From NCBI GenBank assembly GCA_008632985.1, contig QPGO01000049.1, forward strand, positions 248,001-312,000: a stretch of 64,000 nt of DNA. The letters run 5' to 3'. The translations under genes were made by a program, and so were the position numbers. The DNA comes from Psammoneis japonica. Taxonomy: Eukaryota. Under the pieces are notes generated by a model that was not told the DNA's origin, searched no databases, and saw only the letters and a list, made by a program, of their open reading frames with translations. Of the stretch, positions 1 through 45,871 are shown in pieces (the first letter of the stretch is position 1; each line of letters opens with the position of its first letter).

Positions 1-936
1 TCGGCGTCGTCCTCAAACGCGGGAAAATCGTCGGGTTGGTCCTGACCGGGCGTGACGGGGCCCATGGAGGAATCATCCGCGGGTTTGGAGGGGAGAATGG
101 AAGAGCGGCGGAGCTGTGAAGCGAGACAAAGCAACAGAAAAACGCCGTGAGCAACTCTTCAGTAACAACACACAACACAACAATAAACCTATATTTCAAC
201 TCACTTGAGTATCCGACGTAAGCGAGTCTTCTGCGGCTCGCACGCGCTCCACATCCGACACTTGACTCTCATTGTCGGCTCGTTCCGTATCCAAACTGTC
301 CTCAAAGACGTGACGGTCTTCATCCTCGGGATCAAAGGGAGCCCAATCATTCTCCTCTTCCTCTTGCTGTAATTGCTGCGCCTGTTGAGTCCCCATCATG
401 GCACGACGAGCGTCGTTCTCGTCTTGCGGGTCATCTTCCGCCAAGACCCACTCGTTCGCGTCGTCGGCGGTTTGATCGAGTTCAAACGGAATCAACAAGG
501 CCGCGCCCCAATCGCCCTGCTGGCCGCCGGCGTTGTTGTTGTGATCCAACAAGAGCACGGGCTGCTCTTCTTGGTATTCTCCAAAGTTGGCTACATTGCC
601 TTCGGACTGACGTCGCTGTTCCAAATCAACCGAGGTCTTTTTCGCTTCCAAAGACGACGACCCATGAAAGGCCAGTTTGATTTTCACCATGGCTTCGGTA
701 CAATCGTGCATGAGGTACTTGACCTTGCGGGAATAAATCCGAACCACACCCAGCAACAAGTGGCCACTGACACGCAGAGCAAGTGGAACGGTCGGATTGA
801 CAATACTATCCACCGAAGCGGAAATGTCGGTATTGAAAATCTGGGGACGGCCCAGTTTCTTATCGCCCCAATGCGCCGCCAGCCAAACCTTGCCGAGGGG
901 ACCTTTTTTCGCGAGAATAATTTGTGAATAAAACAT
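1..936 (-). CDS. RAD21: Cohesin kleisin RAD21/REC8 family, 5' part (exon 1 936-205, intron 204-114, exon 2 113 to window edge)
   Basis: Starts [23 protein letters not shown]...[24 protein letters not shown] (Rad21_Rec8_N signature). GTGAGT donor at 204 and CAG acceptor ending at 114 give an in-frame continuation ([11 protein letters not shown]...). RAD21 versus REC8 cannot be fully resolved from this part. Confidence 0.92.
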
Positions 937-1391
937 TGTATTGAAGCGTTTCTGTACAGTATGAGAAAAAGAAAGCGCAAAAGTGAGAAAGCGGTGAGAG
1001 AGCGAATAAAGCTGCATAAGGACTCGATTCTGAAAACAGCGCGCAGCGGCAACAGAACGTTTTCAAACTCAACAACAGCGACGCTTCTCCAATTACACAC
1101 AGAAACAACGACTCCTTTTCCAAATCACACGCTTCTACGTTAGACTCATAAACGACACAAGCAACTCCTCATCCGACTCACCTGTTGCTGTCGCTACGAC
1201 GACTCAGTAGGATCGTGTAGGGATTGTTTTTCGCTCGTACGGTGCGGCGTGTATGATACGGATTGCTGCCGCTCTCTCCACCACTCTCTCGAGTCAATTC
1301 AAAGCAATTTCAAACAATACGACGTTCTTATCAACAGTGCAGACGACGACGACGGTATGCTATAAATCAACAATGCAGACGCAATCGGCAG

Positions 1392-1424
1392 TGTTGTTGT
1401 TGTTGTTGTTGTTTTGTTGTTGTT
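1392..1424. repeat. (TGT)n microsatellite
   Basis: Imperfect run of tgt units read directly. Confidence 0.8.
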
Positions 1425-1684
1425 CATGAAGTGAGCCGTGCTTTTTGTTGTGAAGCATGTGAGCCGGCGCGGACGTAGATCCTACGGAGACTTTGTACTG
1501 AGAATCATGTATGTACCTACATACCAAAAATCTTGTATGTAGGGATATACTAGATGCTCCGTAGAGCGCGCTGGAGGCAGTTTTTGGCGCGGCGCGGGTT
1601 CTCGTTCTGATCTCAAAAAAGAGCCAGAGAAGATAGATTGCACAGCAAAGTTTTGTGCCCCCTCTCTCTACTCTAGAGAGTAGA

Positions 1685-2000
1685 GAGAGTAGAAAGTCAC
1701 CTCGACACACCAATGCAACCATGACAAAAAAGGGTCATCCAAGAACCAAGCATTTGAGTGCAAAGTTGCATCACTTTAGGAGGGATTGTGGTGGTGTCTC
1801 CCAGAGGTGAGGAAACATCAACCCCAAAACAAAAAACAAAAGAAAAACTTGAGACTTTCTCAAAAAGTCAATTTTTGAGTTTTGTGGCCCATGACAGAGT
1901 CCAGCTCTGCTGTTGTGCACAAATGAGCACAAATGACAACCTCATTTTTTAGCTTTTGTCAACTGCTTGGAGTGCAACAATCTTGAAAAATTTGGTGGGG
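1685..2000 (+). repeat. About 320-bp dispersed repeat, inverted partner at about 12810-13127
   Basis: agaaagtcacctcgacacaccaatgcaaccatgacaaaaa...caagaaccaagcatttgagtgcaaagttgcatca matches the reverse complement of 13035-13117; similarity continues through catgacagagtccagctct and tcttgaaaaa. Confidence 0.85.
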
Positions 2001-3214
2001 CAATGTGTTGTGGTGCTGTGCTGTGAAAAAAAAAGAAAAAACAAAGAGCGTTTGTTCCTGTTGTGTTGTTCTTTGTTGTGGCGTTGTTTGCAATGCTCAG
2101 CTTTGGTCATCTCATGCATGCAGTGCACAGTTGTTGGGCTGTGCAAGTGTGTGCTTGTGTGTGTGCATGTGCTGCAGGTGGACAAAATGTGCAGAGTGGC
2201 TTCTGCTGAGTGAACTGACACACACAGCAGGCTGGTGGATGATTCTCACACCAGAGTGCCAATCTGAGGCTCTCTGCAAGGAGGAACACAAAAATTGTTG
2301 TGTGCCACCAAGGCTTTTGCACATTGTTAAATTTTCTTGTGCATCAAATGTTGACACACACACACACACACATGACAAAGATTCAAAAATTCTGAGAGGA
2401 CACTCTGAAAAAAAGCATGGAGTCCATGTGCAGAAAATGCTTCTCTGTTTGATGGAACACGAGAACAGGGCAGTTGCAAAGCACTTCTCAAATTGTCCAG
2501 AACAACAACATTGATGGCTCACAACAACCCCCCTCATTGAAACAATGCTTTGTCAAATGCATCCAGGAGGCTGCCCTGCCAAGATGAAACAACATGCATT
2601 GAAGAGATGCTTGCAGCTGACATGTCCATTCTGGCTGCAGGATGGAAGGAGGTTGACCATGAAGAAGGAGCCCAACAATGTGGTCACTGCTTGTCATTGT
2701 TGCTGCCTCCTGTTGGCAGAGGTGAGCAATGGGGGTGCAGTGGTTGTGCGCATCAGTGTGGCAGAATGGATCCAATCTGGTGAGTCATTGTGATGTTGAC
2801 ACATGAATTTTCTTCACAAGCAAACTCTGCAGCCCCCCCCTTGGCCCACGATGAACAAAGCCTGCAATGAAGCAAAGAACAACCAACCTTCCCTTGCCTC
2901 ACAGTTTTGAAAGGAAGAGCTGTGGAGTTGGTGGGGCCAAGCTTCTGTGGGATTGTGCAGCTGTCACACCCTTCATGAAAAGAGCTGTTGGTGGCATGAT
3001 GGTGTGGCATGACAGAGGCCAAAGAAGTGTGAGGTGCATTGATGCCTTCATTTCAAAGCAAGAGTGTCAACTGTGCACACATTGCTGAGCACTTTTGTTG
3101 CTCTCTCATGGGTTGGTCCATCCATCACTCAATCCTTGCGTTCTCTCGTGGAACCGCATTGTCTGCTCTCTCTCTTTCCACTCTGGCAGACACTGGCAGA
3201 GGCCAAGGAGCTCT

Positions 3215-4330
3215 TGAGAGAAAGCAGTGTGGCCCCTCATCTTCCACCCAATTGGTGCTGTTTGGTGTCTCACCATTCAATCATCACAAATTTTCTAAAA
3301 CTCAAGCATCAAAATTGAGTGGAGCATGCTCGCATCGAGATGGGATGTGATCATTCAGCTTGTCAGGGTGCAGGAACCACCCGCTTTTTGCCAATTTCCC
3401 CAAGTTGCAAAGTTTGACATTGCAGAGGCCACCCTCTCCTTTGCTCCCACAACCAAATGTTGCCTGATTGTTGCCGGACGGACTTGGGTCCCAAACACCC
3501 AATCACATCATGACCCTGCCCCAAAGTCCCATCCTGCAAAATTCCTGCTCCACCATGTGGCCAATGACAGTGATGTGGTTCCAAATTCCAAATGGATTCA
3601 CCTGACATGAACAAAACCTTGTCATTCTTGTGAATGTGATTGACAGCTGGATGTCTTGATGGTTGGATCTGGAAGAGTCTCTGAATTTGTGGAGGTGTCG
3701 CAAAGGCCCAGAAGGGCCTGCCTTTGAAATGAGAATCATGGTGGAGAAGTGGATTGATGCAAAGTGTGGCACCACCACCCAAAGAATGACTGCTGACAAT
3801 CAATTCACAGCCTTGGTTCTTGTCCATGGCTTCAACGACAGATTCTCCTGCTCTGGCAAAGAGGTGCTCAGAAAGAATGGAGATGTGGTGTGCATGAGAT
3901 TCTCCTCCCAGAAAGGGTCACATTGCATTGGAGCAGGCAAACAACAAGACAGTGAGATGTTCACCCCAAAAAAGAAAAAAAAGCATGAAGAATGTCCTTG
4001 CAAGAATGGCCAGCTGCATCAATGGCAATTTCCGAGTGCATCATGGTCCCACAAATTGCTGGTGCAATTTTCTGATGGGTGCGGGCAACCATCAAGAAGC
4101 TTTGTTGCAAATGAGCAGGATCATCTGAGCAGTGTGCATCAAAGAGAACAATGTCTGACATGGGAACTCCCGTGTGCCCAGCAATGTTTGCTTGGGTCCA
4201 ATTTCCCACATGGAGACTCAAAATGCTGTCTCCGCAGCTTTTGTCTTGGTGGTGTCAATGTTGGCGCCCACAACAATGGCATCTCCACAGGCTGCCATGG
4301 CATGCTTGACTTTTTTTTGCTTCTTTCATG
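3215..4330 (-). pseudogene. Degenerate genomic copy of the class 3 lipase at 20381-21921
   Basis: Colinear with about 20240-21485, intron included. SHSLGGGATLCINPLLH versus GHSLGGGATLCINLLLH; SGWFLHPDKLNDH shared. Frameshifts, deletions and TA->CA/TG changes. Confidence 0.92.
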
Positions 4331-4334
4331 GAAA

Positions 4335-5480
4335 GCACTTGCCACAGTTGTGACAGGGGTCTGTCTCTGGGGTTTTCTTGGTGGTGCAACCACCAGAGAC
4401 GACTGCTGCTGGACATGAGAGCACTTGGCATTGGCTGGGTCAAGCACACCGGTTGGCCATCAGGGGCGGTCTGGACCATCAGGCCAAAACCTTTGGACAT
4501 GGATTTGGGGTCTGCTGCATGCGTGGCTGGATCTCAATGGTTGTTGCTCTCAAAGTTCTGGTCACGATCGGAGACGCAGGTTGGCGGCAGATCACAGGTG
4601 AGTCCAGCTCTGCGCATGGTGCGCTTGGCATCGTCCTTGCTTTTGAAAGCAATTTCAATCAGTGGCTCATCCAACTTCTCCCTCTTCTTGCAAAAAGGGT
4701 GGCAAAACTGATTTGCATTCTCTTCATCACCACCTGCAGCAAGAACAGCAGCAAGGTGCGCCAGCGTGTGCATGACTCTCAACTCTTTTTCCTTGGTCTC
4801 TTGATCCTCAGAGAGCTCAAACAGGTCCCGCACAGGGCACTTGGGCATGCTGAGCTGTTTGATCTCTTTCTTGAGCTTGTTTAGCTGCTCAATGGATGGA
4901 CTGCAAAGAGCAATGATGAAGGCCATCCAGACTTGGGGGGGCGAGTCGGAATCCTCGACCTTGAAGTCAAGCTTGCTGACCAGATCCGGGTCCAGCAAGG
5001 CTTTCAGGAAGGCAACGACATCCCTGTTGTTTGCATGATTGCAGGAATTGCACTCAGGAGGGCCATGGAGCACCAGCAGCACAGTGCCTGAGATGGTGGC
5101 ATGTGCTGGAGATCCGACGATCCAACAATCAACAACTGCTGGCGGGGCCAGACTCTCGCTGATGGAGCCAGTGTGGAGCACTCGGCAGAGCGGGCATGGA
5201 GCATGGTCTTGGGGGCATTCTGATGGCATCAGAGCCAGAGGTTTAGGCTGCAGCTTGGGCATCCCCAAACAGAAGCGCAGAATGTGTCAAGTTGCCCCAG
5301 CTGGCAAACTGACCAGTCAAAGCACTCCCATGTGCGCGCGCTTTTTTCGGCAGTCTTCCAGTGCATCACTTGGATGTCCACTCCAAGATGATGCCTCAGA
5401 CAGGATGGTGAGCAGTGACTCTGAACTGTCAAGTGGCAATGCAACATTTGGTCAAAAGCCTTTCACAGAAACACAGCTGA
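4335..5480 (-). mobile_element. Degenerate gag-like fragment of a diatom Ty1/copia element
   Basis: NNRDVVAFLKALLDPDL...DS...VWMAFIIALCSPSIEQLNKLKKEIKQL...CP resembles diatom copia gag from memory; TpA-depleted; no LTR identified. Confidence 0.45.
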
Positions 5481-5932
5481 CTAAATCATGAGCTGTCTAG
5501 ACCAAAATCTGGTGAGCGCGACTCTGGACAACTCACAGCGTGGGGATCCATGCTGTCTGGTGCACCGCAGGAGTGACCAAGTTCTCAACAATCAATCCTG
5601 CTCTTACAAGAACCGAATTAGGCCTTGTAACATTGTTCACAGCATGTGACTGTTGTTGAGCCACAAGCTCCAACATGATCCAACGTGGCGGGAAGATTCC
5701 ACGAGGACAGACAGACACAATTTGGATCGCTGGACAGACGATCCACGACTCGGCGCTTCATTCATACGCGGAAACTGTCACATTCTACTGTATGGGATCA
5801 TGCTCTCTATGAAAGCAAATCGAAACGAATGTCAGAATCGCGTGACATCAAAAGAGGAACCCTCTCAAAAAGTTTCACGTTCGAGATCTCTCACCTTACT
5901 TACCTGACAACAACGTTATCATCAGCTGTAGT

Positions 5933-8900
5933 ATGGAATTGTGTACAGGAATGGTAGGATTTTCCTCACAAGGCGTTCGGTTTGTCACCGTGGTAATTCT
6001 TTCACTTTTCTCTCAAGACGGCGTATCCGCCATGTACGATACGATCCACCCTAACTTTCCCTGTTACAAGAACATGCTCGGGACGAAGGAATACCTGGAC
6101 GATCTGGTGGAAAAGGCGTCTTTCAATGCGGATTTGCAGGTTTCGATTCAAGAATTTGGTACCACGGTCGAAGGACGTCCCATGGAAGTCTTCCAAATCA
6201 CCGGCAATGGCGCGAATGATAACGACAAGGGTATCTTGTATTTGGAATGTGCCATTCATGCTCGTGAATGGGCCACGTCCGAAATTTGTTCCCGCTGGGC
6301 CGGCCACTTGGTGGACAATTATGGCATTGACGCGGACATTACGGCCGTCTTGGATCACGCTGAGATCCATATTGTATCCTACGCCAACCCGGATGGACGA
6401 GCCATTTCCGAATCCGGCGATCCCTACGCCTTGTTCGAAGCTTGGCATCGTAAGAACGCTAATGAGGAATACGTCGAAGCCGAAGACTTGACGTGTACCG
6501 GAGAACAGGGTGCTACCTTTGGCGTGGATTGCAATCGCAATTTCCCCTTTTTGCATGCGTTGCCGACGGGTGCTCCTACCTCCTACAGCGGATCCGACGA
6601 TCCATGTGCATCGGTCTTCTATGGTCCTAGTGGTGCCTCCGAACCCGAAACCCAAGCCATTGTCGACTACGCCAGCAGCATTTTCCCCGAGTCCCAACGC
6701 AAAGATGACCCCGAAGACGAAGCAAGCTTTGATATCCCGTATACCGAAGCCACCACGAATGGTATTTATATTGATTTGCACGCCTATGGAAACGTGGTTG
6801 CCTGGTCGTGGGCCTTTGAAGGTACGGTCGACGGTACTACTCGCCTTTCGCCCAACGAGGAATCACTGCACGCTCTGGGACGCAAAATGCAAGTCATTAA
6901 CAATGAATTGCTCATGGCCGGTCCGCTGCAGACGGAATGTCGTGACGGCAATGAACTGACCGAACCCGACCTTCCCGATAGTATTGCGTGCTTGTATCCC
7001 GTGCCCGGTGGATCGTCCGAGTGGGGATATGGGGTGCTCGGAGCCGCGGGCTACACGCTTGAATTTGGGACAGCCTTCCACCAAAATTGCAATACCTTTG
7101 AGAATAACATTGTTGAAGGCGCTCTCGATGTCTTGACCTATGCCGCCAAGGTTTCACGTTATCCCTACGTGACACCTAAGGGGCCCGAAATCTCTAATGT
7201 CGATGCCGATGCCGTGGTCTTTACGTCCAGCAGTTTGACCATTTCTGCCACAGTCAGCGACAGCGACTCGATTATTTCCGAAGATTTTGCGCCTTTTCAA
7301 CAAAACATTCAACAAGTTTGTTTGTTTATTGATGGACATCCCTACGATGCCGATGCCCCATCCTGTAACCCCATGACACTTTCCAACGTTGGTACGACCG
7401 TAACGGCCTCCTTTTCGGAAACCGTGAACGATCTTGGGTTAAGCTCGGGAAGGCACACTGTGTTTCTACAAGGCCAAGACAGTGACGACGTTCTGGGTCC
7501 GGTCACAGCCATGTCCTTTCGCGTCTTTGATCTCCCGTCGGGACCCGTTGATATTTTTTTTCTCGTGGATACTTCGGGAAGTTTTACGGAGGATCTTCCC
7601 CTCTTCAAGGCCGAAGCGCCTGACCTCATCACGGGTATTTTGGAAGAGAATCCGCAGACCCAGTTTGGTGTGGGAACCTTCCAAGACTATCCCATTGGCC
7701 CGTATGGACTTCCAGGCGACGAAGCCTACGTGCTCTTGCAGACCATCACGGACAATATTGCTGCTGTCAATGGTGCTATTGATGACTTGTCCATCTCAGG
7801 TGAAGATTCCGGCGATGACTTCATGGAGAGCCAACTCACCGCCTTGTATCAAGCAGCGACTGGCGAAGGACAAAATGTCAACGACGGAGAATATATCATT
7901 CCCGAAGGACAGCATGCTGGCTTCCGCGAAGGGGCTACCAAATTGATTGTTCTCTGGACGGACGCAACGTTTCACCGCGCCGAGGATGACGACGACTACC
8001 CCGGATACGAAACGGACGATGTGCTCGCCGCCCTTTCCACGGGTGGCGTCGTTGTTGAAGATGCTCGCCTGCGACGTGGTCGTAGGTTGGACGTGGAACC
8101 TCCGATTTCTGTTATTGGTATTAGCCGAGGTGGCAACACCGACGTCATTAACGACCTGACACTACTTGCCAGTGGTAGTGGCGCAATCGCGGGTGTTGGT
8201 GGAGTTGATTGTGATGGGGACGGGATTAGTGACGTTGATCAAGGCCAGCCGATTGTTTGTCCTGGTGTGACTGGCTCGGGCGAAGCCATAGCCATGGCCA
8301 TCAATAACGCGTTGATTGCAGTGTTCGAAACGCTCGTTCCCGTCGAAGCCGTGTGCAAGTCCATTAGCGTAATGGCCACGTTCAATTGTGAAGCAACGAT
8401 TACCCCCACTCAGATCGACGATGGATCATTCGGTTTTAACATTTTGCTGTCCATCGACGAGGACACTCTTGGGGTAGGCGAGCATGACGTAACACTATCC
8501 GCAACCGACGGCAATGGAGATGTGGATAGCGCTACATGTACAGTAACCGTTTTGGACGAATACATTAGTCTTGACGAAGTTTCTTGTGGACTTCCTGGGG
8601 GCGGCGATTGGGATATTATTGAAAGTCCCGATAGTGTAACTGCGTCAGTCGTGAAAGCCAACGGATGCTCTGCGGAAATATCTGTCGTCCAGACTCCGCT
8701 TTGTGAGCGGTGCAATGACGAGGGTATGGTCGACTATCCTGAGTGTTTCAATGGTGTTTCTTTGGAGGGGAGTGATACTATTTCGGTATCAAATATAGCC
8801 GACGGAGCAGGAACTTTTATTCGTTGGAGAGTCACGGCCGTGGGAGATTCACGACCAGGCGATCAACTCGTGTTCTTTTGTGGTCGATGTGTTCAAGACG

Positions 8901-9562
8901 GTACATTCGAGTGTCCTTTGGAAAAGCCTTCTCGCGTTGATTTGGATTCTGATATTTCGTGGCCACAAAATTCAGTGACCGAGTCCGATGGCATTCCCCC
9001 GACAATTTCCTGCCCGGATGACATTGTAGTAGGCAATGATCCCGGTCAATGCGGTGCAATCGTGATGTATGACGTGCCTGAGGGAGAAGACAATTGGTGT
9101 GCTTTCACGGTGCTTTCTGGGGGGCTTGGATCGGGTGGATTCTTTGAAGTAGGAATGGTCCACGTAGAAACTTACACTGTGGAGGACGCTGCTGGATTGA
9201 CTGCTTCGTGCAACTTCACAATCACGGTGAATGATGTGGAGCCCCCAGTTGCGTCCTGTGTGCCAGGTCCGAATCCATCGGGAAATGTCCCTCAATCTAA
9301 CAATCAAGATGGCTTTTGGACTGTGAGTGCTACTGATAACTGTGAGGTCGTAACTTTTGACATTAAGGATTCAGGTAGCGAGGAGCTCTTCCCAGGTACC
9401 TTCGATTCGGAGGGCACGAACATCCAATACGTTGTGGCTAACAAATTCCGTCAGCGAAACGGTCAGGGAGCCGTCGACTACCGACTTACGGGCCTTGGTG
9501 TTGCTGAGGTGATTGCCGTTGACGAAGCGATGAATATGGGCACGGTGACTTGTGTGGCCTAG
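5933..9562 (+). CDS. Secreted M14 zinc carboxypeptidase with vWA and HYR/Ig-like domains, 1209 aa, no intron apparent (start may be 5951)
   Basis: Hydrophobic signal segment; IHAREW, NRNF, DLHAYG and YTLEFG M14 motifs; DIFFLVDTSGS MIDAS motif near 7550-7580; HYR-like PPTISCPDDI...SGGFFEVG...TYTVEDAAGLTASCNFTITVND near 8995-9240. Confidence 0.9.
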   Translation: MELCTGMVGFSSQGVRFVTVVILSLFSQDGVSAMYDTIHPNFPCYKNMLGTKEYLDDLVEKASFNADLQVSIQEFGTTVEGRPMEVFQITGNGANDNDKGILYLECAIHAREWATSEICSRWAGHLVDNYGIDADITAVLDHAEIHIVSYANPDGRAISESGDPYALFEAWHRKNANEEYVEAEDLTCTGEQGATFGVDCNRNFPFLHALPTGAPTSYSGSDDPCASVFYGPSGASEPETQAIVDYASSIFPESQRKDDPEDEASFDIPYTEATTNGIYIDLHAYGNVVAWSWAFEGTVDGTTRLSPNEESLHALGRKMQVINNELLMAGPLQTECRDGNELTEPDLPDSIACLYPVPGGSSEWGYGVLGAAGYTLEFGTAFHQNCNTFENNIVEGALDVLTYAAKVSRYPYVTPKGPEISNVDADAVVFTSSSLTISATVSDSDSIISEDFAPFQQNIQQVCLFIDGHPYDADAPSCNPMTLSNVGTTVTASFSETVNDLGLSSGRHTVFLQGQDSDDVLGPVTAMSFRVFDLPSGPVDIFFLVDTSGSFTEDLPLFKAEAPDLITGILEENPQTQFGVGTFQDYPIGPYGLPGDEAYVLLQTITDNIAAVNGAIDDLSISGEDSGDDFMESQLTALYQAATGEGQNVNDGEYIIPEGQHAGFREGATKLIVLWTDATFHRAEDDDDYPGYETDDVLAALSTGGVVVEDARLRRGRRLDVEPPISVIGISRGGNTDVINDLTLLASGSGAIAGVGGVDCDGDGISDVDQGQPIVCPGVTGSGEAIAMAINNALIAVFETLVPVEAVCKSISVMATFNCEATITPTQIDDGSFGFNILLSIDEDTLGVGEHDVTLSATDGNGDVDSATCTVTVLDEYISLDEVSCGLPGGGDWDIIESPDSVTASVVKANGCSAEISVVQTPLCERCNDEGMVDYPECFNGVSLEGSDTISVSNIADGAGTFIRWRVTAVGDSRPGDQLVFFCGRCVQDGTFECPLEKPSRVDLDSDISWPQNSVTESDGIPPTISCPDDIVVGNDPGQCGAIVMYDVPEGEDNWCAFTVLSGGLGSGGFFEVGMVHVETYTVEDAAGLTASCNFTITVNDVEPPVASCVPGPNPSGNVPQSNNQDGFWTVSATDNCEVVTFDIKDSGSEELFPGTFDSEGTNIQYVVANKFRQRNGQGAVDYRLTGLGVAEVIAVDEAMNMGTVTCVA

Positions 9563-9849
9563 AGAGTGGCCTCGGGGGCGCTCTCGGGCTGAAAAAAGTC
9601 GTTCGTGTCTTCCCATACCCCACACGAAATTGCATATTCCTGCTTGTATGGACGCGTCAGGCTCTGTATGTTGCATCTAACATGCATGATAACACGGCAG
9701 CACGTTGAGTCTAGTTTGGAGAATCATTGGAAAAATCTACGATGGCGACTACTGCACGATACACCATTGCACGAATAACACAAAATAATCTGATTGTTTA
9801 TTCAGTTGAGCAGGGTTGCCCTATGAACAATGCAGCTGAATGCAAACAC

Positions 9850-12300
9850 ACATTCGACTTGGGGTCTTTGTGCTTGAGCTTCAGGTCACACACGTTCTTC
9901 TTTCTCTTTCACCTGTGGTGTGTTCATGTGGCTTTTTCAATTGTCCAAAAATTTTCCTCCCAATCACATCCATGTCAATGGACAATGCTGTGTGCTGGCA
10001 GCACAAATGTGAGGACCAGATTGGATCATTGTTGTGAAGTGACTTTTCAAAGACAAGGGACCATTTGAGGTGAATTCCTGATTCAATCATGGTGGTCATT
10101 TTGCAGAATGTTTGCTGCAATTGAGCAGAATGGCACAAATTCTAGGGCCCATGCTGTTTGACTCTGCTAAGACAAAACAGTCTGTTTTTGTGGCAGTGCT
10201 TTTGCTTTGACAGTGCAATCTGCCAACATCTGCACTGCATTGTGTGAACAAAAATTGTTGAATGCATTGACAAGGATCATGTTCTGCTGCGTGCAGCATT
10301 CTCAATTCTGATGTATGACAAGCAGCATCAACAATGGAGTGCAACTTGTTCGATGTCAAAAAACCAGTTGCAACCGTTGAGCTGCCTGGGGAAACACAGT
10401 CTTAATCTAAATGAAACCAACACACAGTTCACATCTGCAGTTGTTGTTCCTCCATTCTTGCCACCATGCTTTGCAAACAAACAATGAAAACTGCAAACCA
10501 GCCAATTGGAGTGCCTTTGACAGCAAATCCATGTGACATTTTTCTCCATTTGGAAATCCAAATTCAACCTGTTTGTTGTGTTGCAAAGCTGCACTGTTGA
10601 ACATGCATTTTGCTGGCAGAGTCTCCATCAAGACAAATTCTCACAATGCAAGCAGGGGTCTCTCAACATTGAACAACAGTTTTCATGAATTTGCAACATG
10701 TTTTTGTGCCATCCATTCAACAACAGTTTGCGCGGCATTTCCAATTTGATTGGCAAAAAAATTGCAGCAAGGGCAAAATTCCAAGAAACATCTTTGAATT
10801 GATTGAGAACCAAGAGAGGTCAATTGATTTCTCCCATGATCACGCATTTGTTTGCAGTGCTCCTGAACACATCGCAGACAACAACTCCAATCATCTTGCC
10901 AAATTGACAATGGCGTGGCTCTGTCCACTGCTGCTCTTGCAACTGACAACATTGTGGAATCTTTGTTGCTTGCCAGTGCCACCAAAACTGACCAACATGT
11001 TTTCATGACACATGCCCAGGTGACAAGCACTGATGTCCTTTGCTTTCTCAACTCCATTGTGGCATGGCAAGAAGCAGCATCAATTGTGATTTCAAACTTG
11101 CTTGTTTGAGAACCTGAACAAAAATTGCTGCTGCTCAACTTCTGCAGAACATGTCATCCATCCAAACGAACACAATGCACAAATGCCAGTTGTCATTTCT
11201 GTGCTGCCCCATTCAAACCATGCCCCACAACAAACCAGCAGCCATCACAGATGTTTGTTGGCTGGCCTGGAAGGCAGCAATCTCAATTCCCGAAGAAGAA
11301 ACAGCAGTCTTCATGTGATGCATGGGACTGCCATGATTAAAAATGGGCCTGTTGAGTCATGATGAGACACAGCAACACTGTGACACACAGAAGCTGATCC
11401 ATGCCACATGCATGGGCCATAGAAACAATCAAAGCTGCTTGCAAATTTCCAAAAACTCATTGGCAAATGCCTTTGGTGGGCCCACAAAAATGTTGCAAAA
11501 TCAGATGATTTTCTTCTGCTCCTGTTGAATCCAGCTCCTGGTCATCAAATGAGGAAAGCATGATGACAATGTGTTCGCAGCAATCAAGAGGCAGAGGGGC
11601 CACACCTGTTGATGTTGCAGCATTGCTTGCACACCATGTGCTGGTCAAACCTCCCAGCCACCACAGTTGCGCCAAACCAGAAGAGAAAAGCATCCAGCAA
11701 AACTTGTCCTCAAGGAGCAACTGAGGGTTTTGTGCCTCCACATCAGGCCCTTTCAGCCATGGTCAATTTTTGTCCATGGCTCAGCAGCTTCACAGTCTTG
11801 GTTTTGATCAAATGCCAGTTGCTGTGATCCAAGTGACCAAACACAAGGTTGTGGGGAGTTTTTTCAATGTTTGCTTTGGAAAACACTTTTTTTGCTGCAC
11901 CAGGTGCAAGTCTTCTTCTTGCCATGATGTTGTGAAAAAAATTCTCAGCATGCTGCTGTTGTGAAGGGCCATTTTTTTGAAGCTCCACAAACACCTGGAA
12001 GATGCCGTGATTGTGCACGAAATGTGCCAGGACAGACGTTTCAATTTGTCACATGTGTTCAGATTTGCAACTCATTTGTTGATGAAATGACATTTGCCAG
12101 CTAAACTCATTTCGATCGCCAACCCCACTCATTTTGATCGCCAACAATTGGCGACACTTTTGAGCAGCATTTGAGCACTTTTGAGCACTCGTGAGCATGC
12201 TTGAGCAATTTGAGCACATCACATTTGAGCACGTCCATTTGAGCACACAATCCAAAAAGTGATCAACTCATGTGAGCCAAGCAGCATGAAAAGTGAGTCA
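9850..12300. mobile_element. Heavily degenerate unclassified repeat or transposon remnant
   Basis: TpA- and CpG-depleted, only broken frames, ends in an array of short repeats typical of transposon subtermini. Family not recognised. Confidence 0.35.
12106..12247 (+). repeat. Short-repeat array: 2x actcatttYgatcgccaac then 8x TGAGCA
   Basis: TGAGCA at 12161, 12172, 12182, 12192, 12202, 12211, 12226 and 12240. Confidence 0.85.
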
Positions 12301-12767
12301 TTGCATCGGCACCAGTGGATTGATTCAAACCAAAGATGAAACATGTCATTTTAATTTTGCACTGCTCAGTGGCGAGATGCGCTTGGCCTCCTCTCTCCTC
12401 CTGCCCCCACCCACTTTTCATCAATGCGTCGGAGACAGTCACTTGTGCTGCTTCCTCTTCTTTCGGTGTTGTGTTGGCATTTAGAGCAGACCATGTTTTC
12501 CATCACTGATTTGTTCCATTGAGACACTTTCAGCAGGTGGCAGGTTCTTCTTCTCAAAAAAAAAAGAAAAGACTGAAGTCAAGTGTCATGAAGAACACCT
12601 GCCAACATGCACAAATGAGAACAAAAGGGAACACAAAAACTTTTCTTGGTTTTTTCCAGCACTGCACCAGGTTGCCCCCAGAGGTGCACAAATCATCTGT
12701 TGTCGTTCGCACATGCATTCGCACACTCAGCGTGCGCACGAACAGACGATTCACGCACCTCTGGTTG

Positions 12768-12812
12768 CCCCCCCCCCCCCCCCACACCCACACACACACA
12801 CACACACACACA
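12768..12812. repeat. Poly-C followed by (CA)n microsatellite
   Basis: Read directly. Confidence 0.85.
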
Positions 12813-13127
12813 CCACCACCAATTTTTTCAAGACTTTCTTTTGCACTCCAAGCTGCTGGCAAAAGCTGAAAAATTAAGTTCTCATCTGAGCACAACAACA
12901 GAGCTGGACTCTGTCATGCCACAACTCAAAAATGGTGCCCTTGTTGTTTCTTGAGCTGGGTTTTTTGGTTTGTTTTAGGGTTGATGTTTCCTTGCCTCTG
13001 GGGGGGAGACACTGCAATCCCTCCTCAAGTGGCTGATGCAACTTTGCACTCAAATGCTTGGTTCTTGGATTGCACCTTTTTGTCATGGTTGCACTGGTGT
13101 GTCAAGGTGACTTTCTGTTCCAGAGAG
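12810..13127 (-). repeat. Inverted partner of the 1685-2000 repeat
   Basis: Reverse-complement match by eye. Confidence 0.85.
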
Positions 13128-13837
13128 AACAACAACTTTTTGTTTTGCCATCTCATGCACACAGAGTGCACAGTCACAAGAACAGGCAAAACAAAGTTGC
13201 TGTTGACAAAGTGGAGACAAGTGCAAGCCCAGCAAAAGACTCTGTGTGCAATTTTGTGCAAACACAATTGACAGCCACAGATGATGCAGCAAGTGCAGAG
13301 CAACAAAATGATGTTCCTGATGGCTCACAATGACAACCTTGCATTGAAAAGATGCTCTGACAGGTGCGCCCAGACTGCGCAGCTGAGATTGAGAAGCTCT
13401 TGTCAAAAAAATGCTTGCAGCTGACATGCTCCACATTTTGGCTGCAGGACAGAAGGAGGTTCTTGACCACTGATCAATGATGTGGTCATCATTTGTCGTT
13501 GTTGCTTTTTGTTTTGGTGGTCAAACAATGAGATTGCTGGGATGTCGATGGTCGAATGGATCAAATCTGGTGAGCCACCTTGGTGGTGTCGACACACAAG
13601 ATTGTGAACTTTTCTTTTGTGCATTGAAATGAAGTCTTGCACACCTCTCACACTTCATTTGCCTCTGCCATGTCTCCCACAATGTTGCCAACAGCTTGTT
13701 TGCCCACAGGGTGTGGCCAGAAGCTGTGCACATCAATTGAAGCTGCTTGTCCCGCCCAAGCCAGCTTCACAACTCTTCTTCCACAGTTGTGATGAGGAGC
13801 ACTTGGCTGTTGTTTGCTGCTCCATTGCAGGCTTTGT

Positions 13838-16800
13838 TCATCTTGGGACAAGGGGGGCTGCAGAATTTTGCATGTGAAGAAAAGTCAGAGTGTCAGCTGC
13901 CAACTGTGTTTTTTTAAAATAGAAGATTAAGGAAGCCCATGCAGAGCGGAAGGCAACAGCAGAGGGAGGCACGGAGGCAGCTGTAGAGACGGTGGAGTAA
14001 AAGGGTCGAAGGACACAAGACGAAGGGCGTTTTGTGGAAGGCATGGGTGAGGAGGGGGCAGGGAGAGAGGAGGTGAATCGGAGGATGTGCGTAGAAAGGT
14101 GAAGAACAACGTTGTAGCCAAGAGTTTGGGTGGCCCACTGGGATGGGGTGGCTGTGCGGCAGGTGCTTCCAAAGCGATCGGCGGACAGGCGACGCCATGC
14201 GGAGTCAGCAGAGGGAAGGATTGCAGACGGAGACGACAAAGCGTAGAGGAAGGCGGAGCAGGAGGCATCGGAGTGACGAAGGTCAGAGGAAGAGGACCAG
14301 GGTGGCTTGGGCTGAGAGCAGACGGAGGGGGATGTAGAACCAAAGAGCAAGCGGTGGGCAAAGCAGCCGAGACCACCAAGGTGATCTACAGTGAAGGGGA
14401 GCAGGAAGATGCCATTGTTGTCAAGCGAAGAAACAACAAGGGATCCATCGGCAGAGGAAGCAGAGGGGCCAAGAAACTTCAATCTCACGCTCGAGTGGTG
14501 TGCCTCAGTTAAGACAGGAGAAGAGGGGGCAGGCAGACCTGGAGGAGGGCGAGAGGAAGCTTGAGGGACGGTGACGTCCACTGCAATGTAGTGATGGTGG
14601 AAGGGAGCGGAAAGGGAGGCGGGAGGGGGGATTGAAATGCCGACATCGGCGGGAAGGAGAAGCGGGCGGGTGGGGAGCAGGTTGGTGGGTTCAAGATGAA
14701 CGTCATTGGGGGATCGACAGAACTCTGCAAGAGGACCCAAAGTTTGGGCTAGGATGAAAACAGTGTCACGGAGACCATTGGAAAGCTTGGACTTGTGAGC
14801 ACGGCGGCAAGAAAAGGCATGATCACCACAGGCATCCAGAATGGCATGGCCACAGGGACAGGGAGTGTTGACAAGGGACGGAGGAAGGATGGGGAGACGA
14901 AGCTTACGAAGGGCAGCAACAGCGTAGGCGTCCGAAGAAAGGCGGGAGCTTGGAAAGCAACAAGAGAAGGAATGAAGAGGGAGGCTTGTAAGCGGAGACA
15001 GCAATGAAGGGAGTGAAGATTGCACGTCGTAAGATGAGTTAGCAAGGATGGAGGTCACTGCTTGTTGCTGATGTTCATGGTAGAGATGACGGGCCAGGCC
15101 GGGGAGAGTGGCCGATTTAACCAGGGTGGCCAAGGAAGAAGAGGAAAGGGTAGAGGCGGAAGCCAGAACGGGAGCATGACGGCGGAAGAGCGCATGGAGT
15201 CGCAGGGAAGAGCGAGGGTTGGACCAGGAAGACAGGGAGAGCCGAAAGCAGCGCGGAAGGGAAACAGAAGCGCCAGATGGTGGGCTGACACCGTGCGAAG
15301 CAAAGCGGAACGAGCGGAGAAGCGACACCAAGAAGGAAGGAATGGCGGCAGCTGTTGGGTCCCGGAGACCAAACCCGCCCAAGGAGGCAGGAAGGAAGGC
15401 GATGGCAATAGAATGGTCGGGAAAAGGAGCGGCGAAGGAAGTGACGTAGTGTAGAAAGCGGTGAGTAACGGTGAGGAGGAAATCTTGAAACGGAGAGGTC
15501 CAGAGAAAGGGGTCGGGAGGATTGTCGGGGTCGAAGTTGCAGCAGAAGTCAGCTCCAAGGAGGTGAGCAGAGGATGGAACAAAACAGTGCTTGAAGAGTT
15601 GAGCCTGGGTTTGTTTGTCATGGAGACGGGTGAGAAGCACATCAACTTTGTCGGAGAGAGCAGAGGAAGTGTCGGAAAGGAAAGAGGTGGCGAAGTCGTG
15701 GGAGCCGAGGGGCTGTCCAAGGAAGCGAACACCAGAGGTGAGTTCGGGGTTGTAAGAGGGGTCATTGGTGGGGTTTAAGAAGGAAAGTGCAGCACGGAGA
15801 GAATCGGCGCGGGAAGGGGGAAGAGCAGGGATGGGGCTAACACCGGCAATGGAGGTGAGGATCTTGGTTTTACGGAGGTTGAGGGAGATTCTGCAGGGGG
15901 CACCGAGGGCGGAGAAGCGTTCAAGGAACCATGGGAGTACGGGATGGGGAAGGAAAGCGTGAGCATCGTCAATGTAGGAGCCAACTGAGACAGAGGAACG
16001 GCCAGGGATGCGTTCTTGAAGCTCTTGGTTGATCGGACGAAGAACCAGAGAGAGGACCAGGCTGGTGAAGACAGGGCCGAGAGGGCATCCTTGGGCAAAT
16101 CCCTCTTCTTGAAGAAAGGAGCCCCAGGAAGAATTGGGTCGGCGACACCAACATGCATTGGAACTTTGACGTGGAAGGTCAAAAAAAGGAAGCAGAGGAT
16201 GGAAGGCAGGGGTGGAGGTGAGAACGTGTCGACAGGCATCTCGGGATGCTTCGTTGAACATGTTGACGAGGTCAAGAAGAAGAAGAGCCTTGGTAGAGTC
16301 GGCAGAAGAAAGACATCGTTCAATGTTGGCAAGAGCAGAGTGAATGAGATGATCGAGGCCACCTTTGACACCAATGCCAAATTGGCCATCTGGGAGGAGG
16401 CATTCGGTAAATGCAGAACCAAAGAGAGTCATGACGACAGAGCCGGCAATGCGACGAAGAGCAGTGCCGACGCCAATGGGGCGAAGCTTGTTGAGGTCGC
16501 TGGCATCTTTGTGCAGAGCGACAAAGCAGTTCGAAGCAAATGAGGAATGGACGGAGGAAGGAATGGAGCCATGGAGCAGAAGAAGGACAAGCTCACGAAA
16601 GGATGACAAGTGGGGGCATTGAGCAACACCTGTTGGGGTTTTGGTAGAATGGAGGGCGCAGGACTTGAAAAGGTCGGTAGAATCAGCAAAGACACCGGCA
16701 GCAGTCCCAGGCTTGCATTTGGAGAGAGCAGAAAGAAGAGCATCGGAGGAGAGCTCAACAGGCTCATTATGAAGGGAGGAGGCCGAGCGAGTTGAAGGAG

Positions 16801-17668
16801 GATTGGGCAGGTCGGAGGGGTGCAGGCGAGGAGGGTAGAGCTTGAGGATGGCAGGAAGGCGCTCAGGAGTGACGGCAGCAACAGGAAGCGCAGAGGTGAG
16901 CTTGGAGCAGGCCGAGTGAAAGTCATCTTCGTCGGCGCAGACTTGAGCGGAGTGGCAACAGGTGGAAGCAGAAAAGTCGGGGGAAGATGAGGAGAGGCGT
17001 GGCGTGTGGGAGTGGGCTTCGTGGCAGAGTTGGCGAATGCAGCCACGGCGGAAGAGGGACAAGCGGGAGGCAATGGTGGGGCCAAACTTGGAGCGTGGCG
17101 GGACAGGAGCAAGAATGAGAGCTTCAAAGAGTAAGAGCAGCTTCCAGAAGGGAGCAGAGTCACGTTGCCACGTAGGAATGAGGTGGGAGGGGTCAGAGAG
17201 AGGCTGGGAGGCGGCTGGCACCCAGCTTGTCACATGATGAAGAGCAGAGTAGAGTTCCTTGCGGGCGGAGGACGAGAGCTTGCGGCGGCAGGAAGCTCGG
17301 AAAGGCGGAGGCTCGAGTGCAAGAGCATGGAGCCATTGCAGCGAGGGGCCCCAGTCACCTAGATTGTGGAAGGATGAGAGAACAATGTCAGTGTCAAGGG
17401 AAGAGCGAGGAGCGAAGTGCTTGTTCTGCAAGTGATTGCGAAGGTGGGTGGTAGACAGGTGGGTGCATTGGCTGTGATTGCAATGCCTGCAGACATGCAA
17501 ACCAGCGGCATCGAAGAAGGATGCAGGCACATGAGAAAGCGAGAGGCGGGGATGCTCCTGGCGAAGATGGCTGCGCACAGAAGTGGGGAGGGATGATGCA
17601 TCAATGGAAGGAGGGGACCAGGAGCAGAAGGGGCAAGTTGGTGGGGCACGGGCTTCGGTGGGTTCCAC
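13838..17668 (-). CDS. Reverse transcriptase / RLE endonuclease ORF of the CRE-like element, partly mutated (frame reads through the element end)
   Basis: N-terminal C2H2-like fingers, KLRPIGVGTALRR, LDLVNMFN, GFAQGCPLGP, YIDD, GGFGL, CPCG...DACGDHAFSC knuckle, PADV...AVDVTV nuclease motif. Confidence 0.9.
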   Translation of the reverse strand: MEPTEARAPPTCPFCSWSPPSIDASSLPTSVRSHLRQEHPRLSLSHVPASFFDAAGLHVCRHCNHSQCTHLSTTHLRNHLQNKHFAPRSSLDTDIVLSSFHNLGDWGPSLQWLHALALEPPPFRASCRRKLSSSARKELYSALHHVTSWVPAASQPLSDPSHLIPTWQRDSAPFWKLLLLFEALILAPVPPRSKFGPTIASRLSLFRRGCIRQLCHEAHSHTPRLSSSSPDFSASTCCHSAQVCADEDDFHSACSKLTSALPVAAVTPERLPAILKLYPPRLHPSDLPNPPSTRSASSLHNEPVELSSDALLSALSKCKPGTAAGVFADSTDLFKSCALHSTKTPTGVAQCPHLSSFRELVLLLLHGSIPSSVHSSFASNCFVALHKDASDLNKLRPIGVGTALRRIAGSVVMTLFGSAFTECLLPDGQFGIGVKGGLDHLIHSALANIERCLSSADSTKALLLLDLVNMFNEASRDACRHVLTSTPAFHPLLPFFDLPRQSSNACWCRRPNSSWGSFLQEEGFAQGCPLGPVFTSLVLSLVLRPINQELQERIPGRSSVSVGSYIDDAHAFLPHPVLPWFLERFSALGAPCRISLNLRKTKILTSIAGVSPIPALPPSRADSLRAALSFLNPTNDPSYNPELTSGVRFLGQPLGSHDFATSFLSDTSSALSDKVDVLLTRLHDKQTQAQLFKHCFVPSSAHLLGADFCCNFDPDNPPDPFLWTSPFQDFLLTVTHRFLHYVTSFAAPFPDHSIAIAFLPASLGGFGLRDPTAAAIPSFLVSLLRSFRFASHGVSPPSGASVSLPRCFRLSLSSWSNPRSSLRLHALFRRHAPVLASASTLSSSSLATLVKSATLPGLARHLYHEHQQQAVTSILANSSYDVQSSLPSLLSPLTSLPLHSFSCCFPSSRLSSDAYAVAALRKLRLPILPPSLVNTPCPCGHAILDACGDHAFSCRRAHKSKLSNGLRDTVFILAQTLGPLAEFCRSPNDVHLEPTNLLPTRPLLLPADVGISIPPPASLSAPFHHHYIAVDVTVPQASSRPPPGLPAPSSPVLTEAHHSSVRLKFLGPSASSADGSLVVSSLDNNGIFLLPFTVDHLGGLGCFAHRLLFGSTSPSVCSQPKPPWSSSSDLRHSDASCSAFLYALSSPSAILPSADSAWRRLSADRFGSTCRTATPSQWATQTLGYNVVLHLSTHILRFTSSLPAPSSPMPSTKRPSSCVLRPFYSTVSTAASVPPSAVAFRSAWASLIFYFKKTQLAADTLTFLHMQNSAAPLVPR

Positions 17669-20219: not shown

Positions 20220-20380
20220 AACTGTAGAGGGTAGCGAGAGCAGTTTGCCCCCTGTCAAGATCACAAAGACCAAAATCCACCCTCATAGGGACGCCGAGAC
20301 AAGATTGATGAGTCGTCGTCTCCCGCCTAATTGGTACCGTTTGGTGTCTCACTATACAGTTATCAAAAATTTTCTAAAAC

Positions 20381-21921
20381 TCAAGCATCAAGATTGAGCA
20401 GAGCGTGCTCGTATCGAGATGGAAGGTGATCATTCAGTTTGTCAGGGTGCAAGAACCAACCGCTTTTTGCCAATTTCACCGAGTCGCAAAGTTTGACATT
20501 GTAGCTACCACCCTCTCCTTCCCACAACCAAACATTGGTCCACACAGGCAACAGCATGACGGGAACTCCAGGTAGAGGCACAAGTGGGTTATGAATAGTA
20601 TCCATGACTTGCCGGACCAGCTCCGGACTCGGGTCCCAAACACCCACTCGTGTCATAACCCTCCCCCAAAGTCCCATCTTGCCGAGTTCCTGCTCCACGT
20701 GGCTAATGGCGGCGATACGGTGCCGAACGGAATCTCCCGACATGAACGGAACCTCGTCATTCTGGTGAATATAATTGACAGCTGTCTTGATGGTCCCATC
20801 TGGAAAAGTCACTGTGCTTGTAGAAGTTGCAAAGACCGGAGGTGCCGCAAAGGCAAAGGCCCGGAAAGCCCTGTTCTTGAAACGAGAATCATTGTGGAGA
20901 AGTAGATTGATGCAAAGAGTTGCACCTCCGCCCAAAGAATGACCCGTGACGATCAATTCATAGCCTTGGTTCTCGTCCATGGTTTCGACGACAGATTCTC
21001 CTACTCTGGCAAAGAGGCGCTCGGAAAGAATGGAGATGTATGCGTGAGATTCTCCTCCCAGAAAGGGTCCTACGGTATTGAAGCAGGCAAACATTAGGAT
21101 AATGAGAAATCGCATCCCAAAAATAATGAAAAAAAGAATGACAGAATGCCCTTACGAGAATAGCCAGCAAAATCAATGGCAATTTCCGAATGCGTCATGG
21201 TCCCACGAATCGCTAGTACAATTTTCTGATGGGCGTGGTCAACCACCAAGAAGCTTCGCAAATGAGTAGGATCATCTGAGTAGTGCGCATCAAAGAGAAC
21301 AACGTCCGACACGGGAACTCCCACGTGCCCGGCAATGTTGGTTTGGGTCCAATTGCCTGCATAGAGGCTCGAAAAACTATCCGTAGCTTTCGTCTTGGCG
21401 GTGTCAATTTTGGTGCCCACAATAACGGCATCACCATAGGCAGCCACGGCATACTTGACGTATCGTTTCGCTTCTTCCATGGAAAACAGTTTGTCAAGAG
21501 TTTCCATGGTTCGTCCCTCCTTGGTATCCAGCACTGCATCACGTCGATCTTTGGTTCCCATGTCTAATCGTTGGATTCGACCCACAATCTCTTGATTGCT
21601 GGCGAAACGAGCATTCAAAATCGGCTTGATTTCCTTTTCATAAATGCCAGACGTTTCCAGGTACGAAAACAAACTTTGGTAGGCATCCTTAATGTGCGGC
21701 ATGATGGAAGGATTCGACACGACACTTGTCGTCATGCTGTGAAAAGCGCCCGTCCAAAAGAAAAATCGCCCAACGAGCTCACGAGCATAATTTTCGTTGG
21801 GAGTGCCACGCAACAACAGACGCGACCAGTCTGCATCAATGTCTGTGGTCTTTTGAGACAAGAACCAAGCGACAGCCACGGCAATCAGCGCCACCAGGAC
21901 ACTCTTTTGGAACTTAATCAT
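20381..21921 (-). CDS. Class 3 lipase with signal peptide or anchor (exons 21921-21156 and 21069-20381)
   Basis: KIVLAIRGT lid motif and TGHSLGGG nucleophile elbow; 86-bp GTAAG...TAG intron 21155-21070 joins the two ORFs in frame (YSR-PFLGGESH). Confidence 0.92.
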
Positions 21922-21969
21922 TGACAACGAGTATTCGAATATTCGACGCGTGTATGTAGTCGTAGTTCG

Positions 21970-22235
21970 AGTTGGCCAGACTACAGTACTGTGTTTGTTT
22001 GTGTTGATTGCTTCTGCGTGTTTGCAACTGATGCTCTTGTTTTTCGGCGCAACAAAAAAAAGCAGCTTCTGCTGTGCTGTGCATTCAACAACAACTCTTT
22101 AACAGCTTTGTCGACACTCTCAACTCAGTCATATCAGACAGGTGGTGCCGACCCTGTGTTTCAAAAAGAAAGAATCTTTTTTTGATTTGTTGGTTGGCGT
22201 GCTGGCGTGCTGGCACCACCGGGACCCGGAAATGT
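21970..22235 (+). repeat. About 270-bp dispersed repeat, copy 1
   Basis: agcagcttctgctgtgctgtgca...gacaggtggtgccga...aaaagaaagaatctttttt...gggacccggaaa shared with 25787-26095. Confidence 0.85.
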
Positions 22236-22532
22236 ATCTTTTCTGAAAAGCACCGCACCCTGCTGAATGCTGTGTTCTACGTATGAATACGGTACGCACT
22301 GGGTTCTATCTGGGCACACTCCCGGCTTTTAGAATTTTACGTGTTACGTAGAAATCGCGTAGAAAAATTAGCTGGCCAGACTGAAAAGTGCAACGCTCCG
22401 TGGGAGTGAGGCCTGGGCAGGTTCTGGGTTCTTGATTCTTGAGTTCTGTGTTGCCGGCATTTTTCTCGCTGATGCTCATGCTCAATCAAACCATCAAACT
22501 GCTCAATCTCGTGAGCAGTTCCCATCAGCACC

Positions 22533-45870: not shown

Positions 45871-45871
45871 G

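Follow-up and report, generated by a model that had tools for sequence, protein, structure and literature searches.

The stretch of DNA analysed here, hereafter the window, comprises 64,000 nucleotides of contig QPGO01000049.1 (positions 248,001 to 312,000, forward strand) in the GCA_008632985.1 assembly of the diatom Psammoneis japonica; all coordinates below count from its first letter. Among the best 120 matches of two of its genes, all the named ones are diatoms, at 39-44% identity for EMP70 and 45-63% for TRM61; a near-identical protein is not among them. The window contains an intact class-3 lipase gene and, some 17 kb from it, a dead partial copy embedded in DNA that is almost free of TA and poor in CG dinucleotides. 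An earlier note on this locus, made from the letters alone, had pointed to the pair as a case of one copy destroyed and its partner untouched; the pair turns out to be a single manifestation of a hypermutation process that is striking and has hardly been described. The features that are needed first are the following.

20381-21921, minus strand: intact class-3 lipase gene (exon 1 21156-21921, intron 21070-21155, exon 2 20381-21069)
3237-4340, minus strand: dead, 5'-truncated lipase copy, corresponding to codons ~137-484 together with the intron and 65 nt of the 3' untranslated region (3'UTR)
~3920-4001, minus strand: retained intron of the dead copy, with no TA and no CG
1875-5419, no strand: TA/CG-erased domain around the dead copy, 3.5 kb, with 5 TA (odds 0.02), 50 CG (odds 0.23) and CA/TG odds of ~1.8

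The lipase gene and its dead copy

The intact gene runs from an ATG at 21921 to a stop at 20381 and encodes 484 amino acids without interruption; its single intron (21155-21070, GTAAG...TAG) is 86 nt long. In a Pfam family search, for which the two exons were run separately and not as a spliced protein, exon 2 matched Lipase_3 (PF01764) with 47.3 bits against a cut-off of 22. The translation contains a nucleophile motif of the GxSxG type, GHSLGG, and the identity to the top database homologues is 54%. Over 20090-22000, run X2 has a contig that omits exactly the 86 nt of the intron (gap 21069-21154). This run is labelled 'DNA?', but because its coverage is restricted to gene-like stretches we read it as a transcriptome, in which case the lipase is transcribed and spliced as modelled; in a DNA run the joined, intron-less form could also be a processed DNA copy. 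The composition of the gene is ordinary. In its coding sequence the odds are 0.40 for TA and 0.92 for CG, compared to 0.40-0.63 and 0.80-1.20 in six other open reading frames (ORFs) of the window, the 86 nt of the intron include 6 TA (odds 0.84), and the TA odds are 0.62 in the 3'UTR and 0.61 in the 5' flank. The intact lipase is thus without TA or CG loss in coding sequence, intron, UTR or flank, and the excess TA loss at unselected sites that would have counted against an asymmetry between the copies was looked for in intron and 3'UTR and not seen.

The dead copy was paired with 20316-21491, in direct orientation and ~17.1 kb apart, by a repeat finder and self-BLAST, and a tblastn search with the intact protein places it over residues ~133/137-484 of 484. 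The global alignment of the two copies extends over 1078 positions, with 84.1% identity, 124 transitions and 47 transversions, and contains all four pairs of short strings that had been quoted as differing between them. Only 1 TA and 12 CG are present in the 1104 nt of the dead copy (TA odds 0.01). Its frame is interrupted by two in-frame stops, both changes of CGA to TGA (codons 256 and 396), and by 13 exon indels, 9 of which are frameshifting because they are not multiples of three. The intron donor has changed from GTAAGG to GCAAGG, as had been noticed before, and the acceptor is lost, CCGTAG before GA having become CAATGT (TAG to TGT). Since the intron was kept, the duplication occurred at the DNA level and the copy is no retrocopy, which upholds the earlier view. 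The 5' truncation and the decay of CpG had escaped the earlier note. With the promoter and the first ~136 codons missing, the dead copy was probably never functional, being in all probability inert even before the mutations built up.

The dead copy is not an assembly chimera. A single contig of 3867 nt from the data set X1 spans 2001-5607 with 3 substitutions and 3 indels, and the X1 depth is even, being 62.8 on the contig over the dead copy and 62.8-64.8 over the erased stretch 2001-5335, the same as in the single-copy flanks (60-66). X2 has no contig on 2001-5335, which we record without taking it as evidence of silence. Modified bases can be systematically miscalled on some platforms, and X1 is listed without a library type; one could imagine, for this reason, that the pattern is an artefact of sequencing or assembly, for example miscalls at modified bases in silent chromatin. 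We regard this as very improbable, because the X1 contigs contain 98% of the 31-letter words sampled from 2000-11999, because 2001-5607 is reproduced with 3 substitutions, and because the indels and transversions that accompany the transitions are typical of old divergence.

Further gene fragments

Three more fragments of genes of the window were recognized in TA-depleted DNA.

25676-26005, minus strand: second lipase fragment, equivalent to the first 58 nt of the coding sequence and ~260 nt upstream (21864-22182)
45856-46297, plus strand: TRM61/EMP70 fragment in a depleted domain, a copy of 36012-36454 (3' end of TRM61, spacer and start of EMP70)
58010-59648, plus strand: EMP70 fragment in a depleted domain, a copy of most of EMP70 (36708-38500)

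The second lipase fragment lies within the depleted domain 24472-25982, and 6 of its 8 aligned TA have become CA or TG. The part of the lipase N-terminus that neither fragment covers (codons ~20-136) was sought near both by tblastn and by BLAST in a purine/pyrimidine alphabet, and was not found there. The EMP70 fragment carries one in-frame stop, again CGA to TGA. In 4 of 4 pairs the mutation is one-sided, with the fragment mutated and the parent gene not. A BLAST search for hidden duplicates in the purine/pyrimidine alphabet added a single case: 38432-38527, just 3' of EMP70, matches 41410-41507 in an erased domain at 93%, a similarity detectable only in that alphabet.

Spectrum and polarity of the changes

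Within the lipase pair, the 36 TA of the intact gene correspond in the dead copy to 16 CA, 14 TG and a single TA, and the 55 CG to 24 TG, 19 CA and 8 CG, while none of 154 CA/TG sites has turned into TA. The same spectrum can be recognized in the pooled data, which consist of 7 aligned segments from the 4 gene/fragment pairs. Here 93 of the 108 TA of the functional copies are changed in the fragments (52 to TG, 41 to CA; 4 kept), as are 106 of 134 CG (56 to TG, 50 to CA; 13 kept). Of the 206 CA sites 164 are unaltered, as are 208 of the 249 TG sites, and the number turned into TA is 0 of 455. There is no clear strand asymmetry in the TA changes (52 TG vs 41 CA); the CA and TG odds in the elements described below are similar to those of ordinary coding strands, and we draw no inference from them. 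Across the pairs the identity is 92-97% in purine/pyrimidine terms, against an ordinary identity of 68-86%.

The direction of these changes was examined with outgroups, a comparison that the earlier note had proposed. At the 85 non-synonymous differences between the lipase copies in codons 144-484, seven outgroup lipase proteins agree with the intact copy in 52 cases and tie in 21. Tyr codons of the intact lipase have become His or Cys in the dead copy (Lys at codon 154), and CGN Arg codons have become Cys, His, Gln, Trp or stop; at most of these positions the outgroups retain Tyr or Arg. For the EMP70 pair ten outgroups were used, which agree with the functional copy at 70 sites and tie at 32. 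Because the outgroups mostly agree with the intact lipase, the derived states are, on the aligned proteins, assigned to the dead copy.

The TA that survive in the depleted domains (n = 97) give some indication of context. None of them is in ATAT and none in GTAT/ATAC, compared to 62 and 142 of the 871 TA elsewhere, whereas TTAA and CTAA/TTAG are over-represented. The process thus seems to act best on TA with a pyrimidine after it.

Extent of the erased domains

The deficit around the dead copy is far beyond chance: for the domain 1875-5419 the TA odds of local genes predict ~112 TA, against 5 present, and base composition predicts 218 CG, against 50 present. It reaches 1.3 kb and 1.1 kb past the duplicated segment, and the flanks without lipase homology are as depleted as the copy itself (TA odds 0.02 on the left, 0.04 on the right). 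Together with the three further fragments mutated on one side, these flanks bear out the suggestion of the earlier note that the process is targeted by domain or transposable-element neighbourhood and not by homologous pairing. In all, 16 depleted segments make up 36,903 of the 64,000 bp (58%), with TA odds of 0.00-0.16 and CA/TG odds of ~1.1-2.0, and their edges are sharp at a resolution of 200 bp. Ordinary genes lie between them, encoding a Rad21-like protein, an M14 peptidase, the lipase, a STAND NTPase, an EcKL kinase, TRM61 and EMP70. Three of the features on this map are referred to below.

5825-9746, plus strand: M14 peptidase/HYR/integrin-beta-VWA gene, an island of normal TA and CG with an X2 contig
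10344-13798, no strand: second erased domain, on the far side of the M14 peptidase gene, with old inverted homology to 1691-3060
39266-50963, no strand: large erased region (segments 39266-42805 and 43206-50963; TA odds 0.05)

The M14 island of normal composition extends over ~5450-9800, its edges at most ~0.4 kb from the ends of the X2 contig (5825-9746). When the window is divided into 1-kb windows, 69 of 127 have TA odds <0.2 together with CA/TG odds >1.4. The same test applied to 75 metagenome loci around TRM61 homologues gave 0 of 1006 windows, and 0 of 432 in the subset of the 35 best-matching, most diatom-like loci; this result is a control and no proof of absence in other diatoms.

The earlier note had framed the asymmetry of the lipase pair by comparison with RIP, the repeat-induced point mutation of fungi. 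Under RIP, C is changed to T at CpA, so that TpA rises, paired repeats are needed, and both copies are mutated; its hosts are fungi with machinery of the RID type. A pairing-dependent process of this type, with the intact copy rescued by selection, has in its favour that the sequences affected are duplicates or transposons, and RIP is defined, in the part of the RIPCAL report consulted (PMC2621366), as acting on repeated DNA. We find it hardly credible here. The direction is the opposite one, with TA destroyed, CpA not attacked and none of the 455 CA/TG turned into TA; the partner is unmutated even at unselected sites; the non-duplicated flanks are equally depleted, and the domain of the dead copy is at single-copy depth; and the host is a diatom. 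Of the earlier note as a whole, then, the asymmetry and the targeting by domain stand, and the RIP frame does not.

Retroelements: action in place and two rates

Two retroelements of the window are depleted of TA.

50824-57879, plus strand: Copia-type retrotransposon with 171-nt long terminal repeats (LTRs) and RVT_2 and SH3_retrovirus matches
13838-19400, minus strand: high-copy RVT_1 retroelement, with an RVT_1 match in ORF 13838-17692

The identity between the LTRs of the Copia element is 95%, and rises to 100% in purine/pyrimidine terms. All 8 differences between them are transitions at pyrimidine-purine steps, with none elsewhere in the 171 nt. Since a single template gives rise to both LTRs of an insertion, these differences are changes of DNA after integration. 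They include two TG/CA doublets, each best read as one ancestral TA or CG mutated separately in each LTR; for one further difference (CA vs TA at the LTR end) the direction is ambiguous. An estimate of rate from the LTRs was dropped, as they retain TA while the interior is largely depleted. The sequence GCAAG occurs at 50819-50823 and, if the LTR end is moved by one base, just after 57879, which is consistent with a target-site duplication. A polyprotein frame of the element (54690-57371) is open for 893 codons, as TAA and TAG are impossible in TA-free DNA; its reverse transcriptase (RT) motifs are degraded and Tyr is rare.

The RVT_1 element has an X1 depth of 480-4550, compared to ~63 for single-copy DNA, and contigs of its other copies differ from the window by adjacent TG/CA doublets. 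Over 13838-20172 the plus strand has a GC skew of +0.35 to +0.48 and an AT skew of +0.24 to +0.44; transitions cannot make a purine/pyrimidine skew, so it must be intrinsic to the element. The end of the element adjoins the intact lipase gene at the latter's 3' end. At 22515-23621 the plus strand has a 368-amino-acid frame with a zf-MYND match (E 3.6e-7), and the ORF 22539-23484 has 6 TA in 946 nt (odds 0.11) with near-normal CG (odds 0.80); this could be a gene that was targeted recently or one borne by an element.

These observations bear on an origin of the changes in RNA, by which element transcripts would have been hyper-edited from A to I and then reverse-transcribed and integrated. Retrotransposons are indeed among the targets, and a preference for 5' U/T of the ADAR type is described in the accessible text of a preprint to which we return below (10.64898/2026.01.13.699255). 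Such an origin seems to us scarcely plausible, in view of the intron kept in the lipase fragment, the depletion of contiguous flanks that belong to no element, the differences at these very sites between two LTRs made from one template, and the equal change of both strands.

The elements also tell the two losses apart by rate. The Copia element (TA odds 0.06-0.10, CG odds 0.53-0.62), the depleted segments of the RVT_1 element at 15977-19198 (0.08-0.16 and 0.64-0.83) and the zf-MYND ORF combine low TA odds (0.06-0.16) with CG odds that are still 0.53-0.83, while in the old domains both are near zero; and, domain edges aside, no 1-kb window with low CG and normal TA was found in the 64 kb. Because young elements are poor in TA and still have CG, and the reverse combination is absent, we conclude that TA is lost fast and CG more slowly.

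That both losses might be one process, in which TA and CG alike are turned into CA/TG by one repair pathway or one enzyme, such as a dual A/C DNA deaminase, is suggested by their occurrence in the same domains, with the same products and the same strand symmetry (52/41 and 56/50); deamination of A as well as C in DNA by ADAT2 enzymes is cited in the part of the preprint consulted (10.64898/2026.01.13.699255). We consider this unlikely. The degree of the two losses is uncoupled in the young segments just described, the hypermutable regions in that preprint changed, as far as its accessible text goes, at TpA only, and the CpG-methylated transposable elements reported for a model diatom (PMC9998398, seen in part) offer an ordinary route of CG loss.

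A different objection is that there is no targeting at all: a neutral spectrum would destroy TA and CG everywhere, purifying selection would save the genes, and the dead copy would simply decay. It is true that all depleted stretches examined are apparently non-functional, and the functional copies are under selection, with outgroups agreeing at 52 and 70 sites. Yet weakly constrained DNA of expressed genes is not depleted, neither in the lipase intron, 3'UTR and 5' flank (0.84, 0.62 and 0.61) nor in the 3'UTR of the M14 gene (0.69) and two short intergenic spacers (0.56 and 0.60); the domain edges are abrupt; and the Copia LTRs differ at 8 of 8 sites by transitions at pyrimidine-purine steps and nowhere else. 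We therefore hold this objection to be quite improbable.

Proposed mechanism

Domain-targeted TpA hypermutation accompanied by a slower decay of CpG is the best explanation of these data and, in our judgement, a probable one. A 1.1-kb fragment of the lipase gene, with the intron and a bit of the 3'UTR and without the promoter and the first ~136 codons, would have been duplicated 17 kb off, in what would now be a silent, repeat-bearing domain of the diatom genome. In such silent domains TpA on either strand would turn into CpA or TpG at a very high rate, and a slower change would take CpG to TpG or CpA, until almost all TA and most CG were erased, and with them Tyr codons, CGN Arg codons and the two splice sites. 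Because the process would be confined to domains and independent of homology, the parental lipase would remain untouched even in its intron, UTRs and flanks. The spectrum, polarity, strand symmetry and domain confinement of the changes, their action on resident DNA and their independence from homology and copy number are shown by the data from the window.

The chemistry and the targeting are more conjectural. The adenine 3' of T may be deaminated to inosine, which is read as G, possibly by an enzyme similar to ADAT2/TadA. In tRNA adenine-34 deaminases the target follows a conserved U33, and by analogy a requirement for a 5' T would fit enzymes of this type. The CG component would be separate, by deamination of 5-methylcytosine at methylated CpG, which is plausible because diatom transposons are CpG-methylated (PMC9998398, seen in part). 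Targeting may be by silent chromatin or by lack of transcription.

Several observations count against this explanation or limit its reach. The outgroups agree with the dead lipase copy at 12 of the 85 sites, and with the mutated EMP70 fragment at 23. The Copia LTRs retain several TA although the interior is depleted by ~85-90%, so that the depletion may in part be older than the insertion, or the family TA-poor by nature. If X1 is the assembly's own sample, as it may be, its confirmation of the sequence is not independent, and the metagenome control was drawn from gene-rich contigs and not from repeat-rich DNA. The word 'targeted' describes a sequence pattern seen in the 64 kb of the window. 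Finally, CpG decay is absent from the accessible part of the report on the closest known system, so that the two phenomena may not be the same system.

Relation to known systems

That system is the chlorarachniophyte Bigelowiella natans. In full-text searches of the literature for TA loss or TpA hypermutation of resident DNA, a 2026 preprint on this species was the only report found (Mettrop et al., bioRxiv 10.64898/2026.01.13.699255); terms for TA loss returned nothing within the accessible part of PMC2806351. According to the portions of the preprint available, mutation-accumulation lines of B. natans show a ~1000-fold hypermutation, restricted to A to G and T to C at TpA, whose targets are a single-copy, silent, integrated giant-virus region and a virophage region. 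The genome has 124 clusters poor in TpA and rich in CpA+TpG, TpA-poor coding sequences are enriched in RT and DDE domains and in a zinc-finger domain that is not necessarily zf-MYND, and an ADAT2-like adenine deaminase is proposed.

As far as this partial view of the preprint permits a comparison, the likeness lies in the transitions of TpA to CpA/TpG on both strands, in their regional confinement and independence of copy number (shown here by single-copy depth), in the TpA-poor, CpA+TpG-rich clusters, and in the presence of RT-type domains among the targets; the main hypermutable region of B. natans is transcriptionally silent. The differences are no less clear. The host here is a diatom, a stramenopile, and the recognizable targets are Copia and RVT_1 retrotransposons and fragments of neighbouring host genes. 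The loss is near saturation, with TA odds of 0.01-0.05 compared to 0.45 in the region of B. natans derived from a nucleocytoplasmic large DNA virus (NCLDV), and it is accompanied by a strong decay of CpG. In B. natans a rate was measured, whereas here there is a pattern only.

Ascomycete RIP resembles the present case in being an irreversible inactivation of duplicated or mobile DNA by transitions only, with a dinucleotide signature and a blurring of homology. It differs in that here TpA is almost gone and CpA/TpG are raised, and only the silent copy is struck, with its unique flanks included. With the decay of CpG driven by methylation, the CG changes share the conversion of CG to TG (56) or CA (50) among 134 sites, the strand symmetry and the location in repeat-rich silent DNA, and transposable elements of diatoms are CpG-methylated, with DNMT5a as the methyltransferase named in the consulted part of PMC9998398; this decay accounts for the CG half of the pattern only. 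APOBEC and ADAR of animals, in the partial sources available to us, provide a precedent for context-dependent hypermutation of the deaminase type against invading nucleic acids, and ADAR prefers a 5' U. Unlike their substrates, which are RNA or replication intermediates, the substrate here must be resident chromosomal DNA, including an intron-bearing fragment.

We advance as a possibility, and a tentative one, that diatoms, or at least this one, possess a defence by DNA editing that is guided by chromatin domains, deaminates adenine 3' of T, is related to the process in chlorarachniophytes, is old in the stramenopile-alveolate-rhizarian (SAR) group, and strikes any silent DNA, including fresh fragments of host genes. 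If true, this would be an irreversible pseudogeniser similar to RIP but without homology sensing, which removes Tyr codons and TAA/TAG stops and leaves a record of silent chromatin that can be read from sequence.

The same signature at saturation in a diatom would extend the process to a major group of phytoplankton, and would show that transposons and host gene fragments are struck as well as viruses. It would further supply many natural before-and-after pairs from which the rules of targeting could be derived. A purine/pyrimidine alphabet is the best means of recovering the homology of such fragments to their parent genes. The deficits of TA and CG could act as two clocks for dating silencing. 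A practical consequence concerns gene prediction: DNA free of TA has TGA as its only stop, and long spurious ORFs are the result. Thus the erased DNA contains 158 ORFs of at least 90 amino acids in ~31 kb, often overlapping on both strands (for example 3660-4418 on the plus and 4534-5286 on the minus strand).

Other features of the window

A Pfam search was made with 136 of these 158 ORFs, the 22 left out being those that overlap known gene copies or the zf-MYND ORF. Matches were obtained for 2 of the 136, both below threshold, to GTP_EFTU and Amastin (E 0.0094), and no viral gene was recognized among the 136 by this search. No ORF of the large erased region 39266-50963 reached the threshold of a Pfam family. 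The GTP_EFTU match, at 25057-25362 on the plus strand of an erased domain, covers the start of the P-loop (E 2.7e-4, 21 bits against a cut-off of 26.5), and may be another decayed gene fragment.

The M14 gene has an unusual architecture, in which one frame of 1238 amino acids (5846-9562, plus strand) joins an M14 carboxypeptidase, an integrin-beta/VWA-like region and a HYR domain. The inverted homology between 1691-3060 and 12789-13895 is old, with 71-77% identity and one 83-nt core at 93%; it brackets the dead lipase copy, the M14 gene and the second erased domain, and could be due to two copies of an old element or to an inverted segmental duplication. Tandem duplications are present at 60506-61219 (units of ~355 nt, 85%), 61378-61592 (106 nt, 92-97%) and 31282-31738 (spacing of 341 nt, 97%), the first two of which sit in erased DNA.

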